The notes beneath the pieces were generated by a model, which saw only the letters and a list, made by a program, of their open reading frames with translations, did no database searches and was not told where the DNA came from. A stretch of DNA of 40,282 bases from Escherichia phage P1723, in sequence record MT465573; one strand, written 5' to 3'. This document shows positions 6,417 to 39,699 of this stretch, piece after piece (the stretch's first letter is position 1; the number at the start of each line of letters is the position of its first letter). Both the position numbers and the translations under genes were made by a program.

Positions 6417-6439
6417 CATTAACCCACACTATAGGGAAC
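6417..6439 (+). promoter_or_regulatory. Phage RNAP promoter (phi1.05-like), ATTAACCCACACTATAGGGAAC
   Basis: Exact match to the -16..+1 core consensus; +1 G at 6434. Confidence 0.7.
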
Positions 6440-6533
6440 CAGATGGCCTCTCGCCTAGATGCGATGCCGGATGGTCCCAATACTTAAAGTTAAACATAAA
6501 GATACTTAAAGTTAACCAACGAGGTTTACAAAC

Positions 6534-6812
6534 ATGATTACTTCAATCTTTTCATACCTAAAGAAACTCTTTAAGATACCTAAAGTTACCCGCGTGCTGT
6601 TCTACGCTGTGAAGCCTGATGGTCGTCTCCACAAGACAGACTTTGTGTTGGGACTTGGGCCTTGCGGTAAGACAGTCAGTAAACTGAAGTTGTCCTCACG
6701 AGGTCCTCTACTGTATGTACTGACACAGACGCACACCGATGGGTCTCGTAAAGAGTTCATCTTTAAGAAGCATGATGTACTCGGTCGCATAGTTATTGAG
6801 ACCACCCGCTAA
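6534..6812 (+). CDS. Hypothetical protein (gene 1.05 position, 92 aa)
   Basis: ATG ORF following the phage promoter at 6417; no recognisable domain. Confidence 0.55.
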   Translation: MITSIFSYLKKLFKIPKVTRVLFYAVKPDGRLHKTDFVLGLGPCGKTVSKLKLSSRGPLLYVLTQTHTDGSRKEFIFKKHDVLGRIVIETTR

Positions 6813-6815
6813 GCA

Positions 6816-6838
6816 TATTAACCCACACTATAGGGAGA
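6816..6838 (+). promoter_or_regulatory. Phage RNAP promoter (phi1.1-like), ATTAACCCACACTATAGGGAGA
   Basis: Consensus match, +1 G at 6833, directly upstream of gene 1.1. Confidence 0.75.
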
Positions 6839-6877
6839 CAATCCGATCTCCCTTTCGAATACTTTAAGGAATACACT

Positions 6878-7066
6878 ATGAATACCAATTTCGAGCGCAT
6901 CACTCGCAAGGCTCCAACTGAAGGTTTCACTGGTCGTAAAGGCGCTAAGTTAAACAAGCGTGACCGTAAAGCTGACCGCTCTGGGAAGCGTGAAGTCTTC
7001 GACCACATTGCCGATAAGATGGAACGCAAGTACACTTCCTGTGGTAAACAATATCGCGAATACTAA
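6878..7066 (+). CDS. 1.1: Gene 1.1-like small basic protein (62 aa)
   Basis: MNTNFERITRK...GRKGAKLNKRDRK resembles T7 gp1.1; RBS AAGGAA. Confidence 0.65.
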   Translation: MNTNFERITRKAPTEGFTGRKGAKLNKRDRKADRSGKREVFDHIADKMERKYTSCGKQYREY

Positions 7067-7076
7067 GAGGTGGCTT

Positions 7077-7301
7077 ATGGTTAGCCTGAAAGATGCACTC
7101 TGGCTCACTGGTCTGGAAATGACCATGTATTATGACGTTTGCCGGATGTTGCACGTTACAGTTATTTGTGATGCGTTCGGCCTTGAGCTTGGACGTCTCG
7201 AACAACCTTATGCGAAAGATAGCGAGACTACCGCTAAGTTCTACGCATGGAAAATCATCGAGCAATACAACCCACAATTCATGAAGGAAATCAAACAATG
7301 A
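7077..7301 (+). CDS. Hypothetical protein in gene 1.2 position (74 aa)
   Basis: ATG at 7077 with AAGAGGTGG RBS (tool ORF extends upstream to a GTG at 6960); stop overlaps ligase start (ATGA). Confidence 0.55.
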   Translation: MVSLKDALWLTGLEMTMYYDVCRMLHVTVICDAFGLELGRLEQPYAKDSETTAKFYAWKIIEQYNPQFMKEIKQ

Positions 7302-8332
7302 CATCTATTAAAACCAACCCATACAAAGCAGTAAGTTTCGTTCAGTCTGCTGTAGAGAAAGCTCTTGAGAAGAACGGTTCACTCATTGCTGACGTTAAGT
7401 ACGATGGCGTTCGTGGTAACATTGTGGTAGCCGATGACGCGCGTGGCCTGTGGTTGTCACGTGTAGCCAAGACCATCCCTGCACTGGAGCACCTGAACGG
7501 TTACGACCGTCGCTGGGAGAAGCTCCTTAAGGATGACCGCTGGATTTACCCGGAAGGGTTCATGCTTGATGGTGAACTGATGGTCAAAGGTGTGTCGTTC
7601 CAGAAGGGCTCTGGATTGCTGCGTACCAAGTGGCTCAAGCTGAACAACTTTGAGTTCACCGAGCACCGTGTGTTCCACGATGTGTGGAAGTCTAAGAACA
7701 AGCAACCATTCAACCTCTCCGTTGAGCACCTGTGCGTTCGCCTCTATGCTATCCTGCCGCTCGACAAAGTTGAGTCTGGTGAAGATATCGACGTGATGAA
7801 CTGCTTAATGCAGGTCCACTGTCAGCAGATGATTATGGTGCTGCGTGACCACTTCCCTGAAGTCTCTTGGGAACTTGCTGAGACCTACGATGTGTATGAC
7901 ATGCAGTCCCTGAACGAACTCTACGCAGAGAAACGTGCAGAGGGCCATGAGGGTCTCATCATTAAGGACCCAACAGGGACTTATCATCGCGGTAAGAAAA
8001 CTGGCTGGTGGAAGATGAAGCCAGAAGACGAAGCCGATGGTGTCGTTGTTGGTCTCAATTGGGGCACTCAGGGTCTCGCTAACGAAGGTAAGGTTATCGG
8101 CTTCCAAGTTCTCCTTGAGAATGGTGTGGTGGTTGACGCTAACAACATCTCTCAGAAGCTGATGGATGAGTTCACCGCTGAGGTGAAACGTCTGGAAGAC
8201 GAGGAGGTCAACCCTTACGAGGGCTGGCAGTGTCAGGTGAAGTTCATGGAGTACACCGAAGATGGCTCGCTCCGTCACCCTAGCTGGGATTGCTGGCGAG
8301 GGACTGAAAGTGACCCAACGGTGAAGATGTAA
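7298..8332 (+). CDS. 1.3: ATP-dependent DNA ligase, gene 1.3
   Basis: MTSIKTNPYKAVSFV...KYDGVRGN...EGLIIKDP...WWKMKP...EGKVIGF...SLRHPS matches T7 ligase including the active-site KYDGVRG; start at 7298 chosen over 7247 by RBS and T7 alignment. Confidence 0.9.
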   Translation: MTSIKTNPYKAVSFVQSAVEKALEKNGSLIADVKYDGVRGNIVVADDARGLWLSRVAKTIPALEHLNGYDRRWEKLLKDDRWIYPEGFMLDGELMVKGVSFQKGSGLLRTKWLKLNNFEFTEHRVFHDVWKSKNKQPFNLSVEHLCVRLYAILPLDKVESGEDIDVMNCLMQVHCQQMIMVLRDHFPEVSWELAETYDVYDMQSLNELYAEKRAEGHEGLIIKDPTGTYHRGKKTGWWKMKPEDEADGVVVGLNWGTQGLANEGKVIGFQVLLENGVVVDANNISQKLMDEFTAEVKRLEDEEVNPYEGWQCQVKFMEYTEDGSLRHPSWDCWRGTESDPTVKM

Positions 8333-8336
8333 GGCG

Positions 8337-8380
8337 CTAAAAGGTCTACCTTAACGGGTGGGCCTTTTGTCGTTTCTACA
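8337..8380 (+). terminator. Putative intrinsic terminator after ligase (TE-like)
   Basis: Imperfect GC-rich hairpin AAAAGGTCTACC..GGGTGGGCCTTTT followed by TTTTGTCGTTTCT; position matches T7 early terminator TE. Confidence 0.4.
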
Positions 8381-8397
8381 ACTTAAGGATTTACATT

Positions 8398-8583
8398 ATG
8401 AAAGTATTACTGTTCATCTTCATGGCCTCTATAGGTCCCGGTAGTTCAAGCCCATCCGTGGAGGCTATCGCTATGCCAAGCATTCAGGCATGTAACTCGG
8501 CAGTGTCACAGCTCAAAGACGCCAAGAAGCCGGGTCGTGGTTATACCGACTACGAGTACGTCTGCGTCGAGACTTCTTATTAA
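8398..8583 (+). CDS. Hypothetical small protein, possible signal peptide (61 aa; 1.4 position)
   Basis: ATG ORF; N-terminus MKVLLFIFMASIGPGSSSP is signal-like; stop overlaps the next phage promoter. Confidence 0.45.
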   Translation: MKVLLFIFMASIGPGSSSPSVEAIAMPSIQACNSAVSQLKDAKKPGRGYTDYEYVCVETSY

Positions 8584-8600
8584 CCCACACTATAGGGAGA
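8578..8600 (+). promoter_or_regulatory. Phage RNAP promoter (phi1.5-like)
   Basis: TTATTAACCCACACTATAGGGAGACC, +1 G at 8595. Confidence 0.75.
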
Positions 8601-8607
8601 CCACGTT

Positions 8608-8694
8608 ATGATAAATTTCGTGTTATCTATTGCATTCTTAATGTTGTTCATTCTGTCACTTACTGACAATGACGATGACTTAACACCACCATAA
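8608..8694 (+). CDS. Tiny hydrophobic peptide ORF (28 aa)
   Basis: ATG 13 nt after promoter +1; MINFVLSIAFLMLFILSLTDNDDDLTPP has one TM-like helix; same size class as T7 gp1.5. Confidence 0.3.
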   Translation: MINFVLSIAFLMLFILSLTDNDDDLTPP

Positions 8695-8704
8695 GGAGAA
8701 CATC

Positions 8705-8971
8705 ATGATTCGTTTACACTTCAATAAGTCCAACGGCATCTTCAGCGCTCGCCGTGTTGACCGCTCAACTGCGTTCGCCTCCGAGAAACACGCTAAGATT
8801 CCTCGCTTCGGTACGTTCCATTCGTTCGCTCCTAGCGTCCACGCAATTATGACCAATGGTCTTCTGGTTAGTGCCTCCAAAGGTGAGCGCCCGGAAGTAC
8901 CAGTTGTTGTCACTAAGTGGCCTCGCGTTCGTCTGTTCATTGCAACCGTAAAGGAGATTATCAATGACTAA
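8705..8971 (+). CDS. Hypothetical protein (88 aa; gene 1.6 position)
   Basis: ATG ORF with AAGGAGAA RBS; same length and position as T7 gp1.6. Confidence 0.55.
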   Translation: MIRLHFNKSNGIFSARRVDRSTAFASEKHAKIPRFGTFHSFAPSVHAIMTNGLLVSASKGERPEVPVVVTKWPRVRLFIATVKEIIND

Positions 8972-9458
8972 GCCGTACACTATCGAGACCCTGCGCAATA
9001 TCGTTTCGCAGAACCAACTGAAAGCTGGTACGACAACCTGTAGCGGAATGTCGTGTCGTGGTGTCGGCTGCTCAACGTGCCCTATGGTCGGAGCTGCTAC
9101 CGGGAACGGTACGTTCAAGACATTGAGTGAGGCTCGCAGAAGTCTTGCCGGGCAAGAGGCAATCCTAAAGGGAAGCATCCCTGTTAAACAGGCTGATGGC
9201 GCGTCACCGGGTGAAGACCCAGCAGTTAAACAGCCAAGTCACTACCAAGTGTTCGACGGTCTGGAGTCCATTGAGGTGATTGCCCGGTCGATGACCGTTG
9301 AGCAGTTCCGTGGGTTCTGTATGGGCAATACCCTTAAGTACCGCCTACGCGCTGGTAAGAAGTCCGACCAAGCTAACATCCATAAAGACCTCGCGAAAGC
9401 TGAGTTCTATAAGGAACTGTTTGAGAAGCACAAGGCAGAGTGTCATGAAGCCAAGTGA
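8964..9458 (+). CDS. 1.7: Nucleotide kinase, gene 1.7
   Basis: C-terminal PSHYQVFDGLESIEVIARSMTVEQFRGFCMGNTLKYRLRAGKKS...KDLAKAEFYKELFEKHK closely matches T7 gp1.7; Cys-rich N-terminal segment. Confidence 0.8.
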   Translation: MTKPYTIETLRNIVSQNQLKAGTTTCSGMSCRGVGCSTCPMVGAATGNGTFKTLSEARRSLAGQEAILKGSIPVKQADGASPGEDPAVKQPSHYQVFDGLESIEVIARSMTVEQFRGFCMGNTLKYRLRAGKKSDQANIHKDLAKAEFYKELFEKHKAECHEAK

Positions 9459-9540
9459 GTGGTGCGAGATGATGTTTGAACGCACTGGTGACGTGAACTA
9501 CCTCGCTATGTACAACCATTGGAAGGAGAAAGGCCAATGA
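9445..9540 (+). CDS. Small ORF in gene 1.8 position (31 aa)
   Basis: ATG inside the 1.7 stop region; stop overlaps gene 2 start (ATGA); below the tool length cutoff. Confidence 0.35.
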   Translation: MKPSEWCEMMFERTGDVNYLAMYNHWKEKGQ

Positions 9541-9719
9541 CCATTGAAAAGGGACGCCTCGTCCCAACCGATAAGAAGTACTTCGTGACGCTAAGTTACG
9601 TTGATGGTGAGCTGGAGGTTCCAGTGTTCGCTGGGTCTCTCGAAGAGGCACACGATTTGGCAACCTTTAAGTATACTCCGGTAGGCTTTGAGGTGCTCCG
9701 AGTTCGTCCAGCAGTCTAA
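9537..9719 (+). CDS. 2: Host RNA polymerase inhibitor, gene 2
   Basis: MTIEKG...YFVTLSYVDGELEVPVFAGSLEEAHDLATFKYTPVGFEVLRVRP matches T7 Gp2; ATG at 9537 with GGAAGGAGAAAGG RBS (tool ORF starts at a TTG at 9519). Confidence 0.85.
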   Translation: MTIEKGRLVPTDKKYFVTLSYVDGELEVPVFAGSLEEAHDLATFKYTPVGFEVLRVRPAV

Positions 9720-9739
9720 TAACCCACACTATAGGGAAC
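9717..9739 (+). promoter_or_regulatory. Phage RNAP promoter (phi2.5-like), variant AATAACCCACACTATAGGGAAC
   Basis: Core CCCACACTATAGGGA conserved; A instead of T at -15; +1 at 9734. Confidence 0.7.
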
Positions 9740-9769
9740 ACTCCCACAACAAACTTAAGGAGATTCATT

Positions 9770-10474
9770 ATGTCATTCAATCGTAAAGCAATCCTGACTA
9801 CCGCTCTGGGTATTTGTGAACCGTATGCGTACCTGACCAAGCCTGACTATGGCAACGAAGAGCGTGGCTTCGGTAACCCTCGTGGTGTCTATAAGGTCAA
9901 CCTGACCATCGACAACAAGAACCCGCGCTGTCAGTCCATGATTGACGAAATCGTTAAGGCGCACGAAGAGCACTTCGCTCAGCGCAAGGCAGAGTACGAA
10001 GAGAACCCACCTCAGGTACAGCGCGGTAAGAAACCACTGCTGCCGTATGAGGGTGACCTACCGTTCATCGACAACGGTGACGGTACGACTACCTTTAAGT
10101 TCTCCTGCTATGCGTCCTATCAAGACAAGAAGACAAAAGAGACCAAGGCCATTAACGTGACCATCGTGGACTCAAAAGGTAAACGCATCGAAGACCTGCC
10201 AGCTTTCATTGGCGGTGGCTCTAAGCTGAAGCTGAAGTACAGCCTGATGCCTTACACTTGGAACCCTACCGTAGGTGCTTCCGTTAAGCTGCAACTGTCT
10301 AGCGTAATGCTGGTCGAGCTGGCTGCTGGTGGCGCTGGTGGTGGTGATGATTGGGGCGACGACACCGAGGAAGGTGGCTACGAAGCTCAGCAGTCGCAGG
10401 GTCAACGTGATGAGCAGTCTTGGCAGCAGGGCGATGAGTCCGATGGCGAAGCTGATTCTGACGACGACTTCTAA
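9770..10474 (+). CDS. 2.5: Single-stranded DNA-binding protein, gene 2.5
   Basis: 234 aa; EPYAY..KPDYGNEERGFGNPRGVYKV...DGTTTFKF..YASYQDKKTKETK...acidic C-terminus ending DDDF, as T7 gp2.5. Confidence 0.95.
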   Translation: MSFNRKAILTTALGICEPYAYLTKPDYGNEERGFGNPRGVYKVNLTIDNKNPRCQSMIDEIVKAHEEHFAQRKAEYEENPPQVQRGKKPLLPYEGDLPFIDNGDGTTTFKFSCYASYQDKKTKETKAINVTIVDSKGKRIEDLPAFIGGGSKLKLKYSLMPYTWNPTVGASVKLQLSSVMLVELAAGGAGGGDDWGDDTEEGGYEAQQSQGQRDEQSWQQGDESDGEADSDDDF

Positions 10475-10948
10475 ATGACACTCAAGGAGAAACTGGAGGC
10501 TTACTCTAAGGTTTCTCCGTCTGGATGCTGGGAGTGGCAACGCGGAAAGGCTGGTAACGGGTATGGGTCAATCTCTATCGGAAACCAAAAGTCTGCGTAT
10601 GCCCACCGAGTGGCGTACCAAGAGTTTATCGGACAGATACCCGATGGCTACGTGGTACGCCACAAATGTGATAATCCTAGCTGCTGCAACCCAGAGCACC
10701 TCGAAGTGGGGACTCAGGTTGATAACATGCAGGATTGTAAAAGGCGGGGCCGATTGGTTCCACCTCCAGTTCAACGCGGAGAAGCCAACAACAAGACTAA
10801 GCTGACCGGAGACCAAGTGTCTTACGTGTTGTCATCAACCAAGTCCAACCGAGAGTTAGCTCAAGAACTGGGCGTTACGCCACAAGCTATAGGCTGGAGG
10901 AGGAAACATGGCAAACCCATATGCAGGGAGTTACATAACGAAGCCTAA
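10475..10948 (+). CDS. HNH-family endonuclease (gene 2.8 position)
   Basis: 157 aa; AHRVAYQEF...GYVVRHKCDNPSCCNPEHLEVGTQVDN carries the His/Asn/His and Cys ligand pattern of HNH nucleases; overlaps gene 3 by 41 nt. Confidence 0.8.
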   Translation: MTLKEKLEAYSKVSPSGCWEWQRGKAGNGYGSISIGNQKSAYAHRVAYQEFIGQIPDGYVVRHKCDNPSCCNPEHLEVGTQVDNMQDCKRRGRLVPPPVQRGEANNKTKLTGDQVSYVLSSTKSNRELAQELGVTPQAIGWRRKHGKPICRELHNEA

Positions 10949-11357
10949 CGGGTTCCGTTCAGGTCTGGAAGATAAGGTGTCCAAGCAACTCGAATCTAAG
11001 AACGTTAAGTTCGAGTACGAGATGTGGAAGATACCTTATGTAATCCCGGCAAGTAATCATTTATACTGCCCCGACTTTTTGTTACCCAATGGTATCTTTG
11101 TTGAGACCAAGGGTTTATGGGAAGCGGCAGATCGTAAGAAACATCTATTGATTCGCGAGCAATACCCTGAACTGGATATTCGCCTCGTGTTCTCAAGTTC
11201 ACGCACCAAGATTTACAAAGGGTCACCGACCAGTTACGCGGAATTTTGCGAGAAGCACAACATTCAGTTCGCTGACAAGTTGATTCCTGTAAGTTGGCTC
11301 AAGGAGCCTAAGCGTGAAGTACCATTCGACAAGCTCAAGGAGGGCAAAAAGAAATGA
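10908..11357 (+). CDS. 3: Endonuclease I (Holliday junction resolvase), gene 3
   Basis: 149 aa, nearly identical blocks to T7 gp3: FRSGLEDKVSKQLESK, PDFLLPNGIFVETKGLWE, HLLIREQ; GGAGG RBS. Confidence 0.95.
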   Translation: MANPYAGSYITKPNGFRSGLEDKVSKQLESKNVKFEYEMWKIPYVIPASNHLYCPDFLLPNGIFVETKGLWEAADRKKHLLIREQYPELDIRLVFSSSRTKIYKGSPTSYAEFCEKHNIQFADKLIPVSWLKEPKREVPFDKLKEGKKK

Positions 11358-11800
11358 GTGTTCAGTTTAAAACCCGTAGTTCCACGAAGACCCTTATTGT
11401 CCACTGTGCGGCAACTAAGCCAACCATGAATATTGGTCTGCGTGAAATCCGTCAGTGGCATAAAGAGCGTGGCTTTCTGGATGTTGGTTATCACTTCATC
11501 ATTCGACGCGATGGTACTATCGAGACTGGTCGTGACGTTAATCAGGTTGGTGCACATACGGTAGGTCAGAACGACTCATCCGTAGGTATCTGCTTGGTTG
11601 GTGGTGTGGATGATAAGATGCAGCCACAGGCAAACTTTACGCCTCAGCAGATGGCTACCCTGCGTAAACTTCTGGACGAACTGAAAGTTAAGTTCCCCGG
11701 TGTAGCCGTTAAGGGCCACCGTGACTTTGCTGCTAAGGCTTGTCCGAGTTTTGACGTGAAGCGTTGGCTTGACACAAACGAGCTGGTGACGGCTAAGTAA
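11354..11800 (+). CDS. 3.5: Lysozyme / N-acetylmuramoyl-L-alanine amidase (RNAP inhibitor), gene 3.5
   Basis: 148 aa; VHCAATKP..REIRQWHKE.G.LDVGYHFII.RDGT..GRD...GAH...N..S.GICLVGG, KACPSFD matches T7 lysozyme. Confidence 0.95.
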   Translation: MSVQFKTRSSTKTLIVHCAATKPTMNIGLREIRQWHKERGFLDVGYHFIIRRDGTIETGRDVNQVGAHTVGQNDSSVGICLVGGVDDKMQPQANFTPQQMATLRKLLDELKVKFPGVAVKGHRDFAAKACPSFDVKRWLDTNELVTAK

Positions 11801-11817
11801 TTCTATAGGAGGACTCT

Positions 11818-13646
<1,829 letters not shown>

Positions 13647-13722
13647 TCAACTAGAACCTGACTGGAAGCTGACCACACAATGCAACTGCCCTTGGGATAG
13701 ACCTTGTGTCTGTCCTTCACGA

Positions 13723-13745
13723 CATTAACCCACACCATAGGGAAC
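13723..13745 (+). promoter_or_regulatory. Phage RNAP promoter (phi4.3-like), variant ATTAACCCACACCATAGGGAAC
   Basis: C instead of T at -4; otherwise consensus; +1 at 13740. Confidence 0.6.
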
Positions 13746-13776
13746 ACTTCCCGTCAACTACTTTAAGGAGTCCATT

Positions 13777-13986
13777 ATGTTTAAATTCATTAAGTCCCTC
13801 GGTAAGTTCGTCATTAAGATGTACAACGTTGAAGCCAAGCGTCTGAACGCAAAGGCGCGTACTGAAGCAGCTCTGGCTCAGAAGCTGGCTCGTCGTGTCC
13901 AAGAGTTAACTCAAGGCTCAATGGACAATACCGCAGAGGCCGCTAAGGTTGCTGCACAAGCTCAGAAACTGAAGGAGTTCTTCTAA
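13777..13986 (+). CDS. 4.3: Gene 4.3-like protein (69 aa)
   Basis: MFKFIKSLGKFVIKMYNVEAKRLN...AAKVAAQAQKLKEFF resembles T7 gp4.3; AAGGAG RBS. Confidence 0.7.
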   Translation: MFKFIKSLGKFVIKMYNVEAKRLNAKARTEAALAQKLARRVQELTQGSMDNTAEAAKVAAQAQKLKEFF

Positions 13987-14064
13987 GATGGACGGTTACT
14001 TTCTGCTGGGCGTAGCTCTCGGTCTCGTATTTATCCTCATCGCAAACTCGTAAGGAGACACATA

Positions 14065-14343
14065 ATGTCTAAATCATCCCAGACCCTGCACCTGTCCGAT
14101 ACGGTTGACCACTTCAATCGTCGCATCCACGTTAACGTCCGTAATGGTAAGGTCACTATGGTCTACCGCTGGAAGGACCGTACGTCACCGAAAATGCACA
14201 CTCAACGTACCACGTTGGATGACACTCAGGCGGCCCGTCTGTTAGGTCTCCTGACCAAGCAGGTACAGAAAGCAATCCCAGAACGTGATGAAGCGCGTAC
14301 CAAAGCGTTTACCGCTGCGTATCTGGACGAGCTGAGAAGCTGA
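14065..14343 (+). CDS. Hypothetical protein (gene 4.5 position, 92 aa)
   Basis: ATG with TAAGGAGA RBS; assignment by position only. Confidence 0.6.
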   Translation: MSKSSQTLHLSDTVDHFNRRIHVNVRNGKVTMVYRWKDRTSPKMHTQRTTLDDTQAARLLGLLTKQVQKAIPERDEARTKAFTAAYLDELRS

Positions 14344-14350
14344 TAGGTAA

Positions 14351-14386
14351 ACTCAAGGTCATCGAAAGGTGGCCTTTATGATTATC
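14351..14386 (+). promoter_or_regulatory. RNase III site R4.7-like hairpin
   Basis: TGATAGGTAAACTCAAGGTCATCGAAAGGTGGCCTTTATGATTATC; near-identical motif recurs at 37283. Confidence 0.5.
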
Positions 14387-14411
14387 TATTAATTACAAAG
14401 GAGTACAAATT

Positions 14412-14789: not shown

Positions 14790-14799
14790 GGAGAACACT

Positions 14800-16992: not shown

Positions 16993-17002
16993 GGTAGATA
17001 GC

Positions 17003-19083: not shown

Positions 19084-19106
19084 TATTAACCCACACTATA
19101 GGGAGA
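19084..19106 (+). promoter_or_regulatory. Phage RNAP promoter (phi6.5-like)
   Basis: TATTAACCCACACTATAGGGAGAG, +1 G at 19101. Confidence 0.8.
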
Positions 19107-19436: not shown

Positions 19437-19438
19437 CT

Positions 19439-21615: not shown

Positions 21616-21638
21616 CATTAACCCACACTATAGGGAGA
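21616..21638 (+). promoter_or_regulatory. Phage RNAP promoter (phi9-like)
   Basis: TGCATTAACCCACACTATAGGGAGACC, +1 at 21633; extended TGCATTAACCC form shared by the late promoters. Confidence 0.8.
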
Positions 21639-22645: not shown

Positions 22646-22668
22646 CATTAACCCACACTATAGGGAGA
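22646..22668 (+). promoter_or_regulatory. Phage RNAP promoter (phi10-like, strong late)
   Basis: TTTGCATTAACCCACACTATAGGGAGACA, +1 at 22663, upstream of the major capsid gene. Confidence 0.85.
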
Positions 22669-23973: not shown

Positions 23974-24014
23974 AACCCCTTGGGTGTCCTTCGGGATGCT
24001 TGAGGGGTTTTTTG
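23974..24014 (+). terminator. Tphi-like terminator for phage RNAP
   Basis: AACCCCTTGGGTGTCCTTCGGGATGCTTGAGGGGTTTTTTG: GC-rich hairpin plus U-run; same AACCCCTTGGG...CTTGAGGGGTTTTTTG frame as T7 Tphi. Confidence 0.85.
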
Positions 24015-24035: not shown

Positions 24036-24626
24036 ATGCGCGCTTTTGATATGAACGTTGAGACAGTAGCTGAGCTGTACGCTGTGAATGACATTCTGGC
24101 TGCTATCGGTGAACCTCCAGTCTCTACCCTTGAGGGTGACGCTAACGCTGATGTAGCGAACGCCCGTCGAGTCCTCGATAAGATTAACCGTCAGGTTCAA
24201 TCACGAGGCTGGACATTTAACATTGAGGAAGGTGCTGTACTGATGCCAGATGCTTTCAGTAAACTAATTGTCTACAGCGACGACTTCCTTTCGATATTCC
24301 AAGAGGGGTCTGCGACTCCTTACGTTAACCGTGGTGGTTACGTTTATGACCGTGTGAACAAGACCGACAGGTTCGACAATAGCATCACAGTTACAATGAT
24401 TAAACTTCGTGACTACGATGAGATGCCTGAGTGTTTCCGAACGTACATCGTGACCAAGGCTGCTCGTCGATTCAACAGTTCATTCTTTGGGGCCGCTGAG
24501 GTTGAGGCTATGCTGGCAGATGAGGAGCTGGAGGCCCGTCAGATGTGCATGGAGTACGAAATGGATTACGGTGTCTACAACATGCTGGATGGCGATACGT
24601 TCGTTCAGGGTCAGATTAGCCGATAA
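24036..24626 (+). CDS. 11: Tail tubular protein A, gene 11
   Basis: [39 protein letters not shown]... near-identical to T7 gp11; ATG at 24036 with GGAGG RBS (tool ORF starts at a TTG inside the terminator). Confidence 0.95.
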
Positions 24627-24641
24627 TATAAGGAGGGCGCT

Positions 24642-27079: not shown

Positions 27080-27102
27080 CATTAACCCACACTATAGGGA
27101 GA
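27080..27102 (+). promoter_or_regulatory. Phage RNAP promoter (phi13-like)
   Basis: GTGCATTAACCCACACTATAGGGAGAGAC, +1 at 27097. Confidence 0.8.
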
Positions 27103-27128
27103 GACCTAATTCATAAGAGGATTACATT

Positions 27129-27536: not shown

Positions 27537-27538
27537 CT

Positions 27539-28075: not shown

Positions 28076-28087
28076 GGAGGACTAATT

Positions 28088-30505: not shown

Positions 30506-30523
30506 CCATAAGGAGACCCTGAG

Positions 30524-33500: not shown

Positions 33501-34486
33501 ACTACCTGCTTAGCGCTGCACGTCAGGGTCTCATTGGGAACCTTATTGAACACGCTGCGACGGGTAAGTCCTCCAAGTGGCTCAATGAGAACTTCCTGAA
33601 GTCTGCCAGCATCACGCCTGAGCAGTCCAAGGGTATCATTCAGTTCCTCAAAGACCACGCCAAGGTGGACGCTAACGGTAAGTGGACCTTCCCAGACCAA
33701 CACGCGATGAGCCTTGACCCTCGGGCTATGGACTTGTGGCGGATGGCTGATAAGGTTGCAGATGAGACCATGCTCCGACCATCCAAGATTAATGCACAGA
33801 ACGTTAAACAGTTAGGCCCGATTGTTGGCGCTGCGTTGCAGTTCAAAACGTTCGTCATTAAGTCCCTCAATGGTAAGACACTACGTACTTACTATCAGGC
33901 CACTCGCGATGGTCGTGCGATGGACGCTGCATTGTCCACAGGTATCTCCGGGATGCTTGCTGGTTCGTTCTACGTGATGCAGTCCCACATGAAAGCTGCT
34001 GGTCTCCCTGAGAACCAACGTGAGGCTTATCTCTTCAAGGCCTTAACGCCTGAGATGGTTGCCTACGCTGCGGCCTCCCGAAGCTCTATCACTGGTGCGC
34101 CGTTAGGTGTTGCAGATATGCTTCTGGGGCCAATTGGACTGACTCCAAGCCAGTACATGCGTACCACTATCAGTCCTAAGGATGCACCACAGCGAGACCC
34201 TAACAAGGCTTCCTCTGGTCGTTCCGGTACGGCTGAGCTGATGGGTGCTATTGGTCAACAGTTCCCTGTGGCTAACTACGTTGGCTCTACGGTGTCTCTC
34301 GGTCAGAACCTCTGGAACCTCGGAGGTGCCAATGGCCCTCGCGACTCCACGGAGTTCACTACAGGTGTCTATCAGAATATGAAGGAAGTTCTCCCGAACG
34401 ACCCGATTACTCAGAGACTACTTCTGGGTGCTTTCGAAGAGCACATCTACACAACCGAGCGACCTAAGCGTTCAGAGCGCTGGTAA
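30524..34486 (+). CDS. 16: Internal virion protein D with N-terminal lytic transglycosylase domain, gene 16
   Basis: 1320 aa; N-terminus GVSYDLLR...ES.FN..AKS.TGP.G.MQ.T is the transglycosylase motif region of T7 gp16; later segments (FGNPKAI, ILTGRARR, MDLWR.ADKVADE.MLRP) align with T7 gp16. Confidence 0.95.
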   Translation: MAKYDKTIPNQYDGLIRQAADANGVSYDLLRHLTFNESSFNANAKSPTGPKGIMQMTAGTGRAMGLNVFKEDNPADDRYNPEKAIPAAAKLLAGFVKKSNGDELRAALMYNVGEGPTGMPQIEAYDKQDYGSIGDEGRLYIRKLVGSAKSLRSEAIEKFGDFAKGIFEVEAPASKVTRGAPGPETASVNMDTSNLKYDQLNERTAANTWAVQNDQPEENYKPQGADKGLFYKTGDVAKVEVQNSALATMADAALGDNGYDVWSATITPSKWNSYTFTPDDIQKIRESGLRAEYAQSVLGSNAETLDEMIKLAKERQDRQDSVADAGMGAHLVGALAGAAVDPVSYIPIAGAASKGISLGRRMVTVGTQAGALNVASEVLRVGVGGGHADYMMAAGGGLLFGAGLTGVLHRANPREAESVLAATARAESRDAAMRGLPDNSAVSTEGLDFKTSPNGSQYATLDSGEVVLPDGQVLSTSNPLNPNSASQFASVDPEVTKGSMGVRMGSMTDISLHLSRSADDEVRGVAYDLLRSTTGYVKGGSGKSGTVASDVAERLHYTDTSDLTAIEQFTRDAIKDPEWTMGANRGDALARETVVRRAVEAQEDGIGVSKLTKGESKLRDEIFRFTTSKEDAMSNPAMFGNPKAIPVMNKTKLSGKYFPVAYVPEKVAAFRNVFGNSVEDAQGAMQRHFLADYASNPNTKSVVDEMVAAKNGLDSPAAVTPEMVEKWANDKAFGIVNGEFTTNLALDDIASASNSMNLGKNNFLESRHGFSMGFKSQLPDGQMFSLNDLRSFDANKLLRNYARRTNGDIAIHSTGQTTQDLLDKITAIRERAKSDPSGKLKQDANALEDTVKLLTGRARRDPNGAVDMAMGVLKDLSFVAKNAYMGLLNLTEIGGMIAKGNVRALFHGIPVVRDMMRSTKAVSGTDLQKLEYGLMGREVDNMIRPQRADLIQSLRDNSGMGSFGANALGSLKFGTQEIAAAWPMSKLLQGTTNYLLSAARQGLIGNLIEHAATGKSSKWLNENFLKSASITPEQSKGIIQFLKDHAKVDANGKWTFPDQHAMSLDPRAMDLWRMADKVADETMLRPSKINAQNVKQLGPIVGAALQFKTFVIKSLNGKTLRTYYQATRDGRAMDAALSTGISGMLAGSFYVMQSHMKAAGLPENQREAYLFKALTPEMVAYAAASRSSITGAPLGVADMLLGPIGLTPSQYMRTTISPKDAPQRDPNKASSGRSGTAELMGAIGQQFPVANYVGSTVSLGQNLWNLGGANGPRDSTEFTTGVYQNMKEVLPNDPITQRLLLGAFEEHIYTTERPKRSERW

Positions 34487-34487
34487 T

Positions 34488-34510
34488 CATTAACCCACAC
34501 TATAGGGAGA
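34488..34510 (+). promoter_or_regulatory. Phage RNAP promoter (phi17-like), copy 1
   Basis: TCATTAACCCACACTATAGGGAGAGG, +1 at 34505. Confidence 0.8.
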
Positions 34511-34550
34511 GGCAATCACGTCCTCCCTCTAGTTTTCATAAGGAGGCCAC

Positions 34551-34793
34551 ATGGCAAACGTCATTAAGACAGTTTATACGTACCCATTAGATGGCACCAC
34601 GACTGACTTTGCGATTCCCTTTGAGTACCTGTCACGTAAGTTCGTGGTGGTAACGCTCATTGGTCAAGACCGTAAAGAGCTGGTTGTTGTGACCGATTAT
34701 CGCTTCGCTACCCGCAACCTTATCTCTACGACTAAGGCATGGGGACCAGCCGATAACTATCAACAGATTGAGCTACACAACCGAGCGACCTAA
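34551..34793 (+). CDS. Truncated duplicate of the tail fiber N-terminus (gp17 residues 1-74 plus 6 aa), created by the tandem duplication
   Basis: Identical to the first 74 codons of gene 17, then runs through the duplication junction into LHNRAT and a TAA; has its own promoter and AAGGAGG RBS. Confidence 0.6.
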   Translation: MANVIKTVYTYPLDGTTTDFAIPFEYLSRKFVVVTLIGQDRKELVVVTDYRFATRNLISTTKAWGPADNYQQIELHNRAT

Positions 34794-34813
34794 GCGTTCA
34801 GAGCGCTGGTAAT

Positions 34814-34836
34814 CATTAACCCACACTATAGGGAGA
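34814..34836 (+). promoter_or_regulatory. Phage RNAP promoter (phi17-like), copy 2
   Basis: Identical to copy 1; +1 at 34831. Confidence 0.8.
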
Positions 34837-34876
34837 GGCAATCACGTCCTCCCTCTAGTTTTCATAAGGAGGCCAC

Positions 34877-36754
34877 ATGGCAAACGTCATTAAGACAGTT
34901 TATACGTACCCATTAGATGGCACCACGACTGACTTTGCGATTCCCTTTGAGTACCTGTCACGTAAGTTCGTGGTGGTAACGCTCATTGGTCAAGACCGTA
35001 AAGAGCTGGTTGTTGTGACCGATTATCGCTTCGCTACCCGCAACCTTATCTCTACGACTAAGGCATGGGGACCAGCCGATAACTATCAACAGATTGAGAT
35101 TCGTCGATACACTTCTGCAAGTGAACGTCTGGTTGACTTCAGTGATGGTTCCATCCTGCGAGCTACCGACCTTAACGTATCTCAGATTCAGACCCTGCAC
35201 GTTGCTGAAGAAGCGCGAGACCTGACCGCTGATACCATTGGCGTTAACAACGATGGCAACCTTGATGGTCGTGGTCGTCGTATCGTTAACGTGGCAGATG
35301 GTGTGGACGCTGGTGACGTTGTTACCGTAGGCCAGATGAACCGTTGGTCTGGTAGTGCTGCCGACAGCGCCAATAAAGCCAAGGTGTCCGAGACCAACGC
35401 CAAGACCTCTGAGACAAACTCAAAGGCTTCCGAGCTGTTAGCCCAGAAGTGGGCTGAGAACCCTAAAGGAACACCTGTGGTCTCCAGTCAGTATTCCGCT
35501 AAGCATTGGGCGTTGACCTCTGAGGATAGCGCTAATGCGTCTGCAACCTCTGCGGGTAACTCTCAGGCACAAGTAGCGAACGCTAAGACACAGGCTGACC
35601 GTGCTGGTGGTTACGCCAATGACGCTATGGGTTACCGCGATGCAGCCAACACGTCTGCTCAACAGGCCGCTGTATCTGAGGGCAACGCTGCGACATCTGC
35701 AAGTAACGCAAAGACTGAATCCGATAAGCTAATTCAGTTTAACACTCTGGTTGACCGGATTAACGGAGTGGCTGTACGTCAGGTTGGTGAGTTTGAGGTC
35801 CACAACTCTCGTACTTACGCTAAGCCGGGTACAGTGTATGGGGATGGTCAACTGCTGAACCGCAACCAGTTCCCTGCACTAGTAGCTGAGTTACTGGCAG
35901 GACACCTCCCGGTTGTCTCTGACTCCGAATGGCTGGCTGACCCCGGTAAACGTGGTTGCTATACCCTAGGTAACGGTACGACCACTTTCCGTGTACCAGA
36001 CCTCAACGGTGTCTATGCGGGTTCCATTAAGGCTCCTGTGTTCCGTGGTGACGCTGGGTTTACTGTAGGTGATGTTCAGAAGTCAGCTCTACCAAACATT
36101 GAGGGTCTGATTGCACTTGCCGATAATGAGCTGGCCTCCAGTGCCTCTGGTGCATTCTACAACGCTGGGCGCTCCAACAAAGGTGCAACTAACGATACCG
36201 GCGGTGCTCAGTTAGGTTTCGACGCGTCACTGTGGAACGAAATCTACAAGAAGGACACCAACGAAGCCCGAATGAACTCCGTGGTAATCGTATGGGTCAT
36301 CCGTACTCACGGGGTGGTGAACAATCCGGGTTCTGTAGATGCCGCTGTGTTGTCTTCTCGTGTCGAGCAGGTTTATACCGAACTGCTTACACGTATGGTT
36401 GCTAATGAGAACCTCCAGAAGTCTGGACAGAAGTTCCTTCGCCGAGTGTTTAGCGACCGCACGTCTCAGGGGCAACTTTCGACTGGAAGAACAGTGACTT
36501 GCTCTGAGGATATTCTCAACAAGATGCTAGTAATTGGCGCACACACCGATAGCCAAAACCCAAACTCTCAGATATATCGTTGTAGCCCGTTCCTCCAGCC
36601 GAACACTGCTGACCGAATGCACCTCACTCTATCTAACTGGTCGTACACCTTAGAGTTCCCTGCGGCGAATCAAGTTAAACTAGTAGCGGCTACAGGTTCT
36701 GGAGTACAGGCAATCAACTATATTGACGTAGTGTGCGACTACCCACAAACGTAA
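34877..36754 (+). CDS. 17: Tail fiber protein, gene 17 (T7-like N-terminal domain, divergent distal region)
   Basis: 625 aa; residues 1-150 (MANVIKTV..FEYL.RKFVVVTLIG.DRK...DYRFATR...KAWGPAD, GSILRA.DLNV.QIQT.HVAEEARDLT.DTIGVNNDG.LD.RGRRIVN) match T7 gp17; distal part differs and contains a tail-collar-like motif. Confidence 0.95.
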   Translation: MANVIKTVYTYPLDGTTTDFAIPFEYLSRKFVVVTLIGQDRKELVVVTDYRFATRNLISTTKAWGPADNYQQIEIRRYTSASERLVDFSDGSILRATDLNVSQIQTLHVAEEARDLTADTIGVNNDGNLDGRGRRIVNVADGVDAGDVVTVGQMNRWSGSAADSANKAKVSETNAKTSETNSKASELLAQKWAENPKGTPVVSSQYSAKHWALTSEDSANASATSAGNSQAQVANAKTQADRAGGYANDAMGYRDAANTSAQQAAVSEGNAATSASNAKTESDKLIQFNTLVDRINGVAVRQVGEFEVHNSRTYAKPGTVYGDGQLLNRNQFPALVAELLAGHLPVVSDSEWLADPGKRGCYTLGNGTTTFRVPDLNGVYAGSIKAPVFRGDAGFTVGDVQKSALPNIEGLIALADNELASSASGAFYNAGRSNKGATNDTGGAQLGFDASLWNEIYKKDTNEARMNSVVIVWVIRTHGVVNNPGSVDAAVLSSRVEQVYTELLTRMVANENLQKSGQKFLRRVFSDRTSQGQLSTGRTVTCSEDILNKMLVIGAHTDSQNPNSQIYRCSPFLQPNTADRMHLTLSNWSYTLEFPAANQVKLVAATGSGVQAINYIDVVCDYPQT

Positions 36755-36803
36755 GGAACACGAGCAGGGACACGGATAGTCCCACACAATAAGGAGGTGA
36801 CAC

Positions 36804-37010
36804 ATGATGTCATTGGATTTTAACAATGGTACGATTACCATTCCTGCGGCTGCTGCTGGAGATGTCGCCTTGCGTACCTTTTGGGGCCTATCGTTGAACG
36901 AATGGTTCTACGTGGCGGCTATCGTCTACACCCTCGTGCAGATTGGCTCCAAGATGTTCGACAAGTGGCTTGAGTACAAGAAGATGGAATTAGGAGGTCG
37001 CAATGAGTAA
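36804..37010 (+). CDS. 17.5: Class II holin, gene 17.5
   Basis: MMSLDFNN...LSLNEWFYVAAIVYTLVQIG.K matches T7 gp17.5; AAGGAGGTG RBS. Confidence 0.85.
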   Translation: MMSLDFNNGTITIPAAAAGDVALRTFWGLSLNEWFYVAAIVYTLVQIGSKMFDKWLEYKKMELGGRNE

Positions 37011-37275
37011 ACCTGATGCAACCCTTATGTCTCTCCTTGAGATGCTGGACACCAACATGGCACAGCAGATGCTGATGGACCTACAGAACCCTGAGCGTAG
37101 AACCCCTCAGCTCTATAACGCCATAGGTAAACTGCTGGAGCGCCATAAGTTCCAGATTGCTAAGCTGAAACCTGATGCAAACATCCTTGGTGGACTGGCT
37201 GGAGCACTTGGCGACTATAACGCTCAGGTAGGCTCCGATGGTCTAACCGAAGACGAGCGACCAACGCTCAACTGA
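37003..37275 (+). CDS. 18: Terminase small subunit, gene 18
   Basis: 90 aa, position and size of T7 gp18; ATGA-type overlap with the holin gene. Confidence 0.85.
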   Translation: MSKPDATLMSLLEMLDTNMAQQMLMDLQNPERRTPQLYNAIGKLLERHKFQIAKLKPDANILGGLAGALGDYNAQVGSDGLTEDERPTLN

Positions 37276-37282
37276 TAGGCAT

Positions 37283-37316
37283 ACTCAAGGTCACTACATG
37301 TGGTGGCCTTTATGAA
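37283..37316 (+). promoter_or_regulatory. RNase III site R18.5-like hairpin
   Basis: TGATAGGCATACTCAAGGTCACTACATGTGGTGGCCTTTATGAA; shares TGATAGG..ACTCAAGGTC...GGTGGCCTTTATGA with 14351. Confidence 0.5.
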
Positions 37317-37373
37317 TGCTTAACACAACTGTAGGCGTTCCTACGTGAAATCTGATAAAAGACGGGAGGCATT

Positions 37374-37838
37374 ATGCTGGAGATTTTAAAGAAGGCTCTC
37401 CCAATCCTAGTGTTAATCGGCGTGTTTGCCTTAGGGTATAACGTTGGTAGCACCAAGGTGGAGACCAAATGGAAGGAGGAGATACACAATGAGTACGTTA
37501 CGAAGACAGAAGCTAAACAAGCTACTCAGGCTGCGGTCAACAAGATTAGCGCTAAGTACCAAGAAGACTACTCCGCGCTGGAAGGCAGCACTGATAGGGT
37601 TATTGCTGACCTTAAGTCTGATAACAGGCGGCTGTACGCCAAAGTATGCGCCCCCGGCTCAGCCAGAAGCAGTGACGGTCGATGCGAGTCTGTTATCCCC
37701 GTCGAACTACACGAGTCAACTGTTAGAAGCCTTGTCAAAATAACAGAGGCTGCTGACCTGAAGGAGAAAGCCCTTCAAGACACTATTCGTAAACTGATAG
37801 CTAACCATAAGGAGAACAACAGTGAGCGACTACGATAA
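37374..37838 (+). CDS. 18.5: i-spanin (Rz-like), gene 18.5
   Basis: N-terminal TM helix [14 protein letters not shown], then KWKEE.HNEYV...[24 protein letters not shown] matching T7 gp18.5. Confidence 0.85.
37489..37743 (+). CDS. 18.7: o-spanin (Rz1-like lipoprotein), gene 18.7, nested in the +1 frame of 18.5
   Basis: MSTLR...[25 protein letters not shown]: lipobox Cys after a hydrophobic stretch; N-terminus matches T7 gp18.7 (MSTLREL...KKTLPRWKGALIGLFL). Confidence 0.8.
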   Translation: MSTLRRQKLNKLLRLRSTRLALSTKKTTPRWKAALIGLLLTLSLITGGCTPKYAPPAQPEAVTVDASLLSPSNYTSQLLEALSK

Positions 37839-39573
37839 CGATAAGATTATCCAACAGCTCAAATCAGACTTCGTTGCCTTCCTGTTTGTATTATGGAGGG
37901 CACTGAATCTACCCAAGCCAACCAAGTGTCAGATTGACATGGCGAAGGTAGTAGCTGACGAGCGTAACAAGAAGTTCATCCTTCAGGCATTCCGAGGTAT
38001 CGGGAAGTCGTTCATCTTGTGTGCCTTTGTGGTCTGGACGCTATGGCGTAACCCGCAACTAAAGGTCCTCATTGTGTCGGCCTCCAAGGAACGTGCGGAT
38101 GCTAACAGTATCTTCATTAAGAACATCATCGACTTGTTGCCTTTCCTTCATGAGCTTAAGCCTCGTCCGGGACAGCGTGACAGTGTGATTAGCTTTGACG
38201 TTGGACCAGCCATGCCTGACCATAGTCCGAGCGTGAAGTCAGTGGGTATTACTGGTCAGTTGACTGGTAGTCGTGCTGATATCATCCTAGCAGATGACGT
38301 AGAGGTTCCCGGCAACAGTGCTACCGCTGGTGCTCGTGAGAAGCTATGGACTCTGGTACAGGAGTTTGCGGCCTTGCTGAAGCCTTTGGATAGCTCTCGG
38401 GTTATCTACTTGGGTACACCACAGACCGAAATGACTCTCTATAAGGAACTGGAAGATAACCGTGGTTACACGACCACAATCTGGCCAGCTCAATACCCAC
38501 GCAACAAGGAAGAGGACTTGTATTACTCTCAGCGACTGGCCCCGATGCTACGTGAGGAGTACGACGAGTACCCTGAGATGCTTGCTGGTCAACCTACCGA
38601 CCCTGTGCGATTCGACCACGATGACCTTCGTGAGCGTGAGCTTGAATACGGGAAGGCTGGTTACACGTTGCAGTTCATGCTTAACCCTAACCTCAGTGAT
38701 GCCGAGAAGTACCCATTACGTATGCGTGATTGCATCGTAGCGGCCTTGGACATCGAGAAGGCACCAATGCATTACCAATGGCTACCAAACCGTCAGAACG
38801 TGAATGACGAGCTTCCTAACGTGGGACTTAAGGGCGATTCCCTGCACAGTTACCATGAGTGCTCTAACCGTTCCTCTGAGTATACCCAGAAGATTCTTGT
38901 GATTGACCCTAGTGGTCGAGGCAAGGATGAGACGGGTTATTGCGTCCTGTATGCGCTGAATGGCTACATCTACCTGATGGAAGCTGGCGGCAAGGACGGG
39001 TACGAAGAGAAGACGTTGATTGAGTTAGCCAAGATTGCCAAGAAGTGGAAAGTACAGACAGTGGTCTTTGAGTCCAACTTCGGTGACGGTATGTTTGGTA
39101 AGGTCTTCCAGCCAATCCTGCTACAGTATCATCCTGCTACACTTGAGGAGATTCGTGCACGAGGCATGAAGGAGTTACGTATCTGCGATACCTTAGAGCC
39201 AGTCTTAACGACTCACCGTCTTGTCGTTCGTGATGAGGTCATCCGTGAGGACTATCAGACAGCTCGTGACAAGGATGGGAAACCCGATGTGTCCTACAGT
39301 CTCTTCCACCAGTTCACACGCATCACGCGCGTTAAGGGAGCCTTGAAGCACGACGATAGGCTGGATGCCTTAGCGTTAGGCGTAGAGTTCCTTCGTGAGT
39401 CCATGAAGTTGGACAGCGTTAAGGTTGAAGAAGAGAAGGTGCTGGAGTTCCTTGAGCACCACATGGAGTCGCCCTTAGTGAGCAACAAGCACATCCACCA
39501 GATGACCTTTGGTGCACTTGATGTCTACTATGAGGATGACGACTTGTCTAGCGGTAACATCATGGGATGGTAA
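37822..39573 (+). CDS. 19: Terminase large subunit, gene 19 (GTG start)
   Basis: 583 aa; [59 protein letters not shown] near-identical to T7 gp19; no in-frame ATG near the N-terminus; GTG at 37822 follows a TAAGGAGAA RBS. Confidence 0.93.
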
Positions 39574-39676
39574 TACCTTAAGTCACATTGAGTGCTTATG
39601 CACTAATAGTGAATACTTATGGAGGTACACATGGAAGTGGCCTCTATAAGAAATTCCTTATGAATCAATAGGTTTG

Positions 39677-39699
39677 CATTAACCCACACTATAGGGAGA
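39677..39699 (+). promoter_or_regulatory. Phage RNAP promoter (phiOR-like) near the right end
   Basis: TTTGCATTAACCCACACTATAGGGAGAGGG, +1 at 39694; no substantial ORF downstream. Confidence 0.8.

Follow-up and report, generated by a model that had tools for sequence, protein, structure and literature searches.

The 40,282-bp genome sequence of Escherichia phage P1723 (record MT465573), which we analyzed over its whole length and refer to here as the window, is that of a T7/T3-like podophage in which one 23-bp sequence recurs 13 times. A sequence-only reading of the window had interpreted these repeats as phage promoters, assigned a +1 position to each, and described an extended upstream form at the late genes. 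The nearest relative is Escherichia phage SRT7 (Autographiviridae, Studiervirinae, genus Foetvirus), which is 96.9-98.0% identical across 96-98% of the window length, and the remaining phages in the collection reach about 75% identity over about one fifth of the genome. Using T7 and T3 proteins as tblastn queries, we recovered a full collinear T7/T3 gene set consisting of genes 0.3, 0.7, 1, 1.05, 1.3, 1.6, 1.7, 2, 2.5, 3, 3.5, 4, 4.3, 4.5, 5, 6, 6.5, and 8-19. Gene 0.3 is of the S-adenosylmethionine (SAM) hydrolase type and thus T3-like. Gene 1 (3724-6372, plus strand) encodes a single-subunit RNA polymerase (RNAP) of 882 amino acids, the presumed reader of the 23-bp sites.

The 23-bp repeats and their positions

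All of the listed +1 positions carry the sequence ascribed to them, and all 13 sites lie on the plus strand. For the main scan, the 20-mer ATTAACCCACACTATAGGGA, which spans positions -16 to +4, was compared with both strands of the window. This returned exactly 13 sites with zero or one mismatch and none with two to four, the next ones having five or six. Across 100 dinucleotide shuffles, no match with three or fewer mismatches was obtained; the number of sites with at most one mismatch expected by chance is zero. We also ran the weight-matrix search that the sequence-only reading had proposed as a check, with a matrix built from the 12 unique copies. The 13 sites scored 35.8-41.9 bits and alone stood above background, the next-best score being 10.2 bits and shuffled sequence reaching up to 9.6 bits. 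Because the 13 sites are so well separated from the next-best background score, the list compiled by eye is exhaustive, and we rejected the possibility of missed weaker promoters, since the mismatch and matrix scans of both strands yielded none. The same scans were empty at the phi1.3, phi3.8, and phi4c positions, where the sequence-only reading had likewise seen no promoter.

Two sites with five mismatches were considered as candidates and rejected, namely, 36775-36797 (ATAGTCCCACACAATAAGGAGG, +1 at 36792), which lies before gene 17.5, and 24614-24636 (ATTAGCCGATAATATAAGGAGG, +1 at 24631), which lies before gene 12. Both overlap a Shine-Dalgarno sequence and score about 6 bits, the level of shuffled sequence, and judging from these scores they most likely reflect chance. 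The site before gene 17.5 is found in SRT7 too. The heptamer CCCACAC occurs elsewhere in the window once more on the plus strand and twice on the minus strand, matching chance.

The leftmost copy, phiOL (302-324, +1 at 319), has an A at +1 (TATAAGGAGC), scores 37.5 bits, is kept in SRT7, and precedes both gene 0.3 and the sigma-70-like early promoters. It is followed by phi1.05 (6417-6439, +1 at 6434), which has a GGGAAC start and begins 44 nt past the RNAP stop codon, with its +1 located 100 nt before the homologue of T3 gene 1.05. Both phi1.1 (6816-6838, +1 at 6833) and phi1.6 (8578-8600, +1 at 8595) are perfect consensus copies, the +1 of the latter lying 110 nt 5' of the gene 1.6 homologue. 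The lowest score of the set (35.8 bits) belongs to phi2.5 (9717-9739, +1 at 9734), which carries an A at -15 and a GGGAAC start; it overlaps the end of gene 2, its +1 lies 36 nt before gene 2.5, and SRT7 shares the A at -15. The neighboring middle promoter, phi4.3 (13723-13745, +1 at 13740), has a C at -4 and a GGGAAC start and scores 36.4 bits. At this position of phi4.3, SRT7 keeps the consensus T, and so the C in the window is a strain-specific single-nucleotide polymorphism.

In the late region, phi6.5 (19084-19106, +1 at 19101) is perfect from -16 to +6, with a T at -17 that is preceded by TG, giving TGTATT. The TGCATT form is found at phi9 (21616-21638, +1 at 21633), at phi10 (22646-22668, +1 at 22663), which precedes the major capsid gene, at phi13 (27080-27102, +1 at 27097), and at phiOR (39677-39699, +1 at 39694). 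Gene 17 is associated with two copies of phi17, the first at 34488-34510 (+1 at 34505) and the second at 34814-34836 (+1 at 34831). Both read ATCATT and lack the TG; the second has a context identical to that of the first and precedes the full-length gene 17. These two copies are one promoter doubled by a tandem repeat (see below), so that, although all 13 sequences are present, the number of independent sites is 12.

From -16 to +4, each position carries about 2 bits of information; C or T occupies position -17, and +5/+6 read GA or AC, giving the consensus YATTAACCCACACTATAGGGAGA. CACTATA-GGG occurs at 11 of the 12 independent sites, with exceptions noted at phi4.3 (CACCATA) and phiOL (AGG start), and ACCCA occupies positions -12 to -8 in all 13 copies. 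The +1 A, -15 A, and -4 C variants are as the sequence-only reading had described them. Its suggestion that the -15 A and -4 C copies may have weaker activity is plausible, and such variants occur naturally: T3 phi1.3 carries TAATAACCC, and phiOL and phi1.6 of phage PP81 carry a C at -4. Likewise, T3 phi2.5 and phi4.3 start with GGGAAC, and an AGGAG start is common to T7 phiOL and the leftmost promoter of Vibrio phage N4.

The sites are intergenic or overlap the end of the upstream gene by no more than 6 nt, and for each of the 10 promoters that directly precede a gene, the distance from +1 to the start codon is 32-111 nt. Placed on the gene map obtained with the T7 and T3 proteins, the positions are syntenic with promoters annotated in the T7, T3, K11, and PP81 records. 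SRT7 carries the same 12 sites, and its record annotates coding sequences only and no promoters.

The gene 1 polymerase and its specificity loop

The gene 1 polymerase shares 71% identity with the enzymes of T7 and T3 and 98% with that of SRT7, and it keeps all of the catalytic residues D537, R627, K631, Y639, H784, and D812 (T7 numbering). Its specificity loop is encoded by KRLDLIFLGKIRMALTIN (5953-6006, plus strand), so that T7 positions 748, 756, and 758 are occupied by D, R, and A, respectively. The loop thus carries 748D together with 757M-758A-759L, and its motif, RMALT, is shared with Vibrio phage N4; the corresponding motif is RLQPT in T7 and T3, NVKMT in K11, and HLQPT in PP81.

Across the six phages compared, the loop residues at 748/756/758 and the promoter bases at -11 to -8 co-vary without exception. 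D/R/A goes with CCCA both in the window and SRT7 and in Vibrio phage N4, D/R/Q with CCCT in T3, N/R/Q with GACT in T7, N/H/Q with CTAT in PP81, and K/N/K with GGCA in K11. The N4 polymerase is only 63% identical to that of the window (the T7 enzyme, 71%), yet RMALT and the promoter core from -16 to -1 are identical in the two phages. In this alignment, the D at 748 matches C-11/C-10, as in T3, and the A at 758 within RMALT goes with the A at -8, which places the system in an "ACCCA" class. The Aeromonas phage T7-Ah, which has an N4-like loop region, was considered for this class and excluded; because it has RLQL instead of RMAL and no CACTATA-type sites, it represents a different class.

Published experiments bear on this pairing of loop and promoter. 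T7 RNAP with only 748D and 758A uses promoters bearing ACCCA at -12 to -8, and so does T7 RNAP with the grafted residues 747I/748D/749C/750V/751I/754T/755H/757M/758A/759L (PMC11880802, Table 2). The grafted residues are those of the Vibrio N4 loop. In vitro, TAATTAACCCACACTATAGGGACA is transcribed by an ICP3/JSF35-type phage RNAP that has no cross-reactivity toward the T7 promoter (PMC13029058), and the loop regions of JSF35 and N4 share 99% identity. The N4 promoter AATTAACCCACACTATA is included in a review (PMC11617373), and the ICP3 GenBank record annotates such sites as promoters.

The promoters of the Vibrio cholerae phages N4, ICP3, and VP4 (Chatterjeevirus) are among the closest known systems. 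Their core from -16 to -1 is identical to that of the window (ATTAACCCACACTATA), and N4/ICP3 share with it the GGGAGA start of the late copies, the loop residues D748, R756, and M-A-L at 757-759, and a layout with copies before genes 6.5, 9, 10, 13, and 17 and at the right end, the leftmost copy starting with AGGAG. The N4 specificity, with ACCCA at -12 to -8, is used in synthetic biology as an orthogonal T7-RNAP system. There are also differences. The window enzyme is nearer to those of T7 and T3 (71%) than to that of N4 (63%), position -17 is A in N4 but C or T in the window, the AT-rich recognition loop reads KQRGKPHV in N4 but RVKKGRKHV in the window, and N4 has about 16-18 promoter copies and infects V. 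cholerae instead of Escherichia coli.

T3 (AATTAACCCTCACTAAAGGGAGA) agrees with the window at -16 to -9 (ATTAACCC), at D748, and in its GGGAGA and GGGAAC starts, as well as in gene order (SAM hydrolase 0.3 and gene 1.05), promoter positions, and the block upstream of phiOR. It differs in having T at -8, A at -2, and Q758, where the window has A, T, and A, respectively, and in having the extra promoters phi1.3, 3.8, and 11 and no working phi17. The promoter of Klebsiella phage K11 (AATTAGGGCACACTATAGGGAGA) is identical to that of the window from -9 to +6 (CACACTATAGGGAGA), including the A at -8, and in neither phage is residue 758 a Q; however, K11 has GGG or GGA at -12 to -10, where the window has ACC, and its loop is K748/N756/K758 instead of D/R/A. 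The A at -8 and the T at -2 set the window promoters apart from strict T3 promoters, and the ACC at -12 to -10 sets them apart from strict K11 promoters.

Like T7, the window has invariant late promoters and an invariant phiOR, deviants confined to the early and middle regions, an A at +1 of phiOL, a Tphi-like terminator behind gene 10, and a concatemer junction marked by ATCTGTT. Unlike T7, it has 12 promoters instead of 17, with none at phi1.3, 3.8, 4c, or 4.7, its middle promoters phi1.1 and phi1.6 are perfect consensus copies, and the upstream TG motif has no T7 counterpart. Outside Foetvirus, the closest polymerase (76%) is found in the Pectobacterium phages PP81 and PP47 (Pektosvirus), which have the same promoter positions and the same phiOR block but a different core (AATTAACTATCACTAT) and the loop N748/H756/Q758. 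Since this sister genus has another core and another loop, promoter specificity has switched between sister genera.

In IMG/VR, the exact 22-mer was matched by SRT7 and Vibrio phage N4. Over IMG/VR, the JGI metagenomes, and GTDB together, exact-pattern scans returned only SRT7, Vibrio N4/ICP3-type phages, and three islands that are not phages. Among the metagenome sequences, contig OCPJ01000014.1 (38,531 bp) is a near-complete ICP3/N4-type genome with 97% identity to Vibrio N4 and the same promoter.

Together, these data indicate that the 23-bp repeats are almost certainly promoters of the phage's own T7-type single-subunit RNAP, the gene 1 product. The interpretation of the 23-mers offered by the sequence-only reading is thus backed by synteny, by strand, by a polymerase whose loop matches, and by published experiments on loop and promoter. 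The alternative, that they are packaging, replication, or recombination signals or a functionless dispersed repeat, would draw on the fact that the promoter starts in this phage rest on analogy, and it would fit the location of phiOL and phiOR on either side of the terminal repeat, where packaging signals also lie. We consider it highly improbable: the sequence is a T3/K11-type promoter save at a few positions, the sites occupy promoter positions annotated in the T7, T3, K11, and PP81 records, all copies are co-oriented with the genes, the changes relative to the T3 promoter parallel those in the polymerase loop, and the same loop/promoter pair was functional in published experiments (PMC13029058, PMC11880802).

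Several points weigh against the assignment of the repeats to the gene 1 polymerase or restrict it. The +1 positions rest on analogy for both the window phage and SRT7, and it is by analogy that we infer actual initiation at the listed positions and the relative strengths of the promoters in this phage. One of the 13 copies, arising from the duplication, may be absent from the real genome. Outside the RMALT core and in the AT-rich recognition loop, the window polymerase is unlike the Vibrio enzymes, and position -17 is C or T in the window promoters, whereas it is A in N4, T3, and K11. Given these differences at -17, in the outer loop, and in the AT-rich loop, interchangeability with the N4/ICP3 system may be less than full.

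Under the promoter interpretation, transcription would proceed as follows. By analogy with T7, the host RNAP would transcribe the early region from sigma-70-type promoters at approximately 375-900 and thereby yield the phage polymerase. The phage polymerase would then bind every 23-mer, its AT-rich recognition loop reading -17 to -13 (YATTA) and its specificity loop reading approximately -12 to -5 (ACCCACAC) in the major groove; TATA at -4 to -1 would be melted, and transcription would start at the G at +1. The middle genes would be driven by phi1.05, 1.1, 1.6, 2.5, and 4.3 and the late genes by phi6.5, 9, 10, 13, and 17, with phiOL and phiOR on either side of the concatemer junction. The layout would be completed by a hairpin of the Tphi type behind gene 10 and by the putative junction pause signal ATCTGTT.

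Late promoters, the phi17 duplication, and the genome ends

The sequence-only reading had further proposed that late promoters share a longer TGCATT form that echoes the distinction between class II and class III promoters in T7. The TGCATT form is indeed present in four copies (before genes 9, 10, and 13 and at the right end), but it is absent at phi17 and is not established as a promoter element. The dinucleotide TG at -19/-18 occurs in five of the six late promoters, phi17 being the exception, and in none of the six others (phiOL, 1.05, 1.1, 1.6, 2.5, and 4.3), a difference for which a post hoc one-sided Fisher test gives a P value of 0.0076.

One explanation of this pattern is that TG(C)ATT is a functional part of late (class III-like) promoters, extending the polymerase contact to -19 and making these promoters stronger. 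An upstream A+T-rich extension is reported to strengthen T7 class III promoters. The distribution of the TG over phi6.5, 9, 10, 13, and OR speaks for this explanation, as does the retention of all TG copies in SRT7, but at 97% identity, SRT7 is too close for retention to show conservation. Relatives at an intermediate distance were absent from the exact-pattern scans of IMG/VR, the JGI metagenomes, and the GTDB genomes. Besides the lack of TG at the late promoter phi17, Vibrio phage N4, which shares both the core and the RMALT loop, has an A at -17 and no TG preference.

The context of two of the TG copies also argues against a role in recognition. At phiOR, the TG is the end of an upstream block of about 23 nt (TCCTTAnGnnTCAATnnGTTTG) that is conserved also in T3 and PP81; the block reads ttccttatgaatcaataggtttg in the window, and its T3 and PP81 versions are ctccttaagaatcaatgagtttg and ttccttatgtttcaataggtttg, respectively. 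The TG at phi13 lies within a CTGTGGTG block common to T7, T3, and K11, with variable spacing to the promoter; the block upstream of phi13 (CTTGTGGTG) occurs in T7, T3, and K11, and its T3 counterpart is annotated as the RNase III site R13, overlapping phi13. The phages that share these upstream blocks have three other promoter specificities. Because the TG at phi13 and phiOR sits in blocks kept by phages with other cores, an extended recognition element is not established. On these comparisons, the TG is more likely a neighboring conserved element than a part of what the polymerase recognizes, and a functional late-promoter extension seems to us unlikely.

A different feature resembles the T7 classes more closely. 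From -16 to +6, the late promoters phi6.5, 9, 10, 13, 17, and OR all have one and the same sequence, with a GGGAGA start. The A at +1, the A at -15, the C at -4, and the GGGAAC start are found only at phiOL, 1.05, 2.5, and 4.3, all of them early or middle promoters. However, phi1.1 and phi1.6 are also perfect consensus copies, and so the split by sequence is not clean. From the aligned promoters, the closer parallel to T7 is this invariance of the late promoters from -16 to +6 and not the TG extension.

The sites at 34505 and 34831 have identical flanks because both copies of phi17 lie within a 326-bp segment that is perfectly duplicated in tandem (34447-34772 and 34773-35098, plus strand; 326/326 identical). 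In each unit, phi17 is flanked by the final 40 nt of gene 16 and the initial 222 nt of gene 17, and the first unit creates a truncated gp17 open reading frame (ORF; 34551-34793) of 80 amino acids, 74 of them gp17 residues and 6 others. SRT7 lacks the duplication and has a single phi17, the same SRT7 segment aligning twice to the window. We judge the chances to be about even that the pair is an assembly artifact, such as an untrimmed contig-end overlap kept inside the sequence after re-orientation. The two units are 100% identical and exactly adjacent without junction microhomology, the window has visibly been re-opened at the terminal-repeat boundary, SRT7 has only one copy of the unit, and the added N-terminal gp17 ORF is of doubtful benefit. 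Against an artifact, genes 16 and 17 are both intact despite the duplication, and so the arrangement is viable; moreover, tandem duplications arise in T7-group phages.

Gene 17, which encodes the tail fiber, differs from that of SRT7 at its 3' end as well, where the segment 36385-36746 gives no megablast alignment to SRT7 although identity on either side of it is 97-98%, which suggests an exchange of the receptor-binding end. In addition, an HNH homing-endonuclease-like gene (10475-10948, 157 amino acids) sits between genes 2.5 and 3. Its product is 39-41% identical to T7 gp2.8/gp7.7 and has no counterpart in SRT7, and the adjoining segment of gene 3 is only 83% identical to SRT7.

We looked for a terminal repeat at both ends of the window and rejected it, as the two ends share no repeat. 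As read from its ends, the window is one concatemer unit opened just past the terminal repeat, that is, a circular permutation and not the packaged linear form. A single copy of the putative terminal repeat (189 bp) lies at 40093-40281 on the plus strand, assigned by homology to the 175-bp terminal repeat found at both ends of the SRT7 record. The junction signal ATCTGTT, made up of base 40282 and bases 1-6, spans the window join and is the sole occurrence of this motif in the circularized window; it lies directly 3' of the terminal repeat in T7, T3, K11, PP81, and SRT7.

Candidate terminators were found at the two expected places. A TE-like hairpin (8334-8373, plus strand), with a 14-bp stem and -22 kcal/mol, lies directly 3' of the ligase gene, which is the position of TE in T7/T3. 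A Tphi-like terminator (23975-24014, plus strand), with a 15-bp stem, a six-U run, and -23 kcal/mol, lies between genes 10 and 11, which is the position of Tphi in T7, T3, and K11. Downstream of phiOL, four sigma-70-like sequences of the form TTGACA-N17-TAACTT/CCTAAT lie at 375, 530, 737, and 899 (375-930) and are probably the counterparts of T7 A1-A3. Owing to their poor -10 hexamers, they were missed by a consensus scanner. Two of them, at 530 and 737, constitute a 39-nt direct repeat with 85% identity. Finally, an AT-rich stretch at 6480-6520 with repeated ACTTAAAGTTAA is located 45-85 nt downstream of phi1.05, where the T3 record annotates the primary replication origin.

Promoter-bearing integrase islands and wider relevance

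The three loci with the exact 22-mer that are not T7-like phages are in Kluyvera sichuanensis, in an identical metagenome contig (OLHG01009217.1), and in Proteus cibi. The Kluyvera island (NZ_JABBJF010000050, approximately 700-5700, minus strand) is a small chromosomal element of about 5 kb that lacks an RNA polymerase gene. It carries a tyrosine integrase gene (5677->4019, minus strand), followed by an ORF of 202 amino acids, after which comes the exact phage promoter AATTAACCCACACTATAGGGAGAGACA (3124->3102, minus strand). About 170 nt past this promoter lies a second, promoter-like 34-mer (GCATTAATCCTCACTAAGGGGAGG), which is matched at 97-100% by the right-end (phiOR) position of three Pseudomonas phages, Stalingrad, Bosely, and PFP1. 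Next is a region with many CCTAAAG/CTTGAAG motifs, followed by a 97-amino-acid ORF, a KilA-N ORF, and a membrane-protein ORF.

The Proteus cibi locus (NZ_PENW01000018, 1900-4500, minus strand) has an integrase gene (4490->2898) beside prfB and lysS-like genes, followed by two exact, co-oriented promoters (2624->2603 and 1996->1975, minus strand) that are 628 bp apart. CCTAAAG/CTTAAAG-type motifs lie between the two copies, and no ATCTGTT was found in this locus. The layout of the Proteus promoters resembles the arrangement of phiOR, terminal repeat, and phiOL at the phage junction (907 bp in the window). We rejected nucleotide homology between the region downstream of the island promoters and that from phiOR to the end of the window, as the MAFFT alignment showed promoter and loose motif similarity only, and in BLAST comparisons, the island regions matched phages only in promoter stretches of about 30 nt. 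PADLOC defense-system models gave no convincing hit among the island ORFs. In the literature searched, we found no description of such T7-promoter-bearing islands; papers on PICMI and on marine satellites do not involve T7-type promoters. As a hypothesis drawn from these sequences, the islands may be small integrative elements wired to the polymerase of a T7-like phage, either as satellites or as polymerase-triggered defense islands.

A promoter set of this kind is an expected feature of a T7-like phage, and its exact specificity is already known from Vibrio N4/ICP3. We found no paper on SRT7 or Foetvirus promoters in the literature searched, and the present analysis supplies a predicted transcription map for the phage, on which 12 promoters are placed together with Tphi, TE, and the putative junction pause site. 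The analysis also places the N4-type ACCCA specificity in an E. coli phage that would use it natively with a polymerase otherwise like those of T7 and T3, so that the window polymerase would be a second, diverged natural enzyme (63% identical to that of N4) for the N4-type orthogonal promoter. The by-products of the analysis, the specificity switch between sister genera and the islands with exact phage promoters, are possibly of greater import. It is conceivable, although we think it doubtful, that the ACCCA/RMALT pair arose or was kept independently in Foetvirus, an E. coli phage lineage with a polymerase otherwise nearer to T7/T3, while the sister genus Pektosvirus changed to another core, and that the islands are elements switched on, and possibly packaged, by an ACCCA-type T7-like phage. 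If the first part is true, Foetvirus would represent a natural promoter-specificity switch brought about by two or three loop residues; if the second is true, the islands would be satellites of virulent T7-like phages or defense islands triggered by their polymerases.

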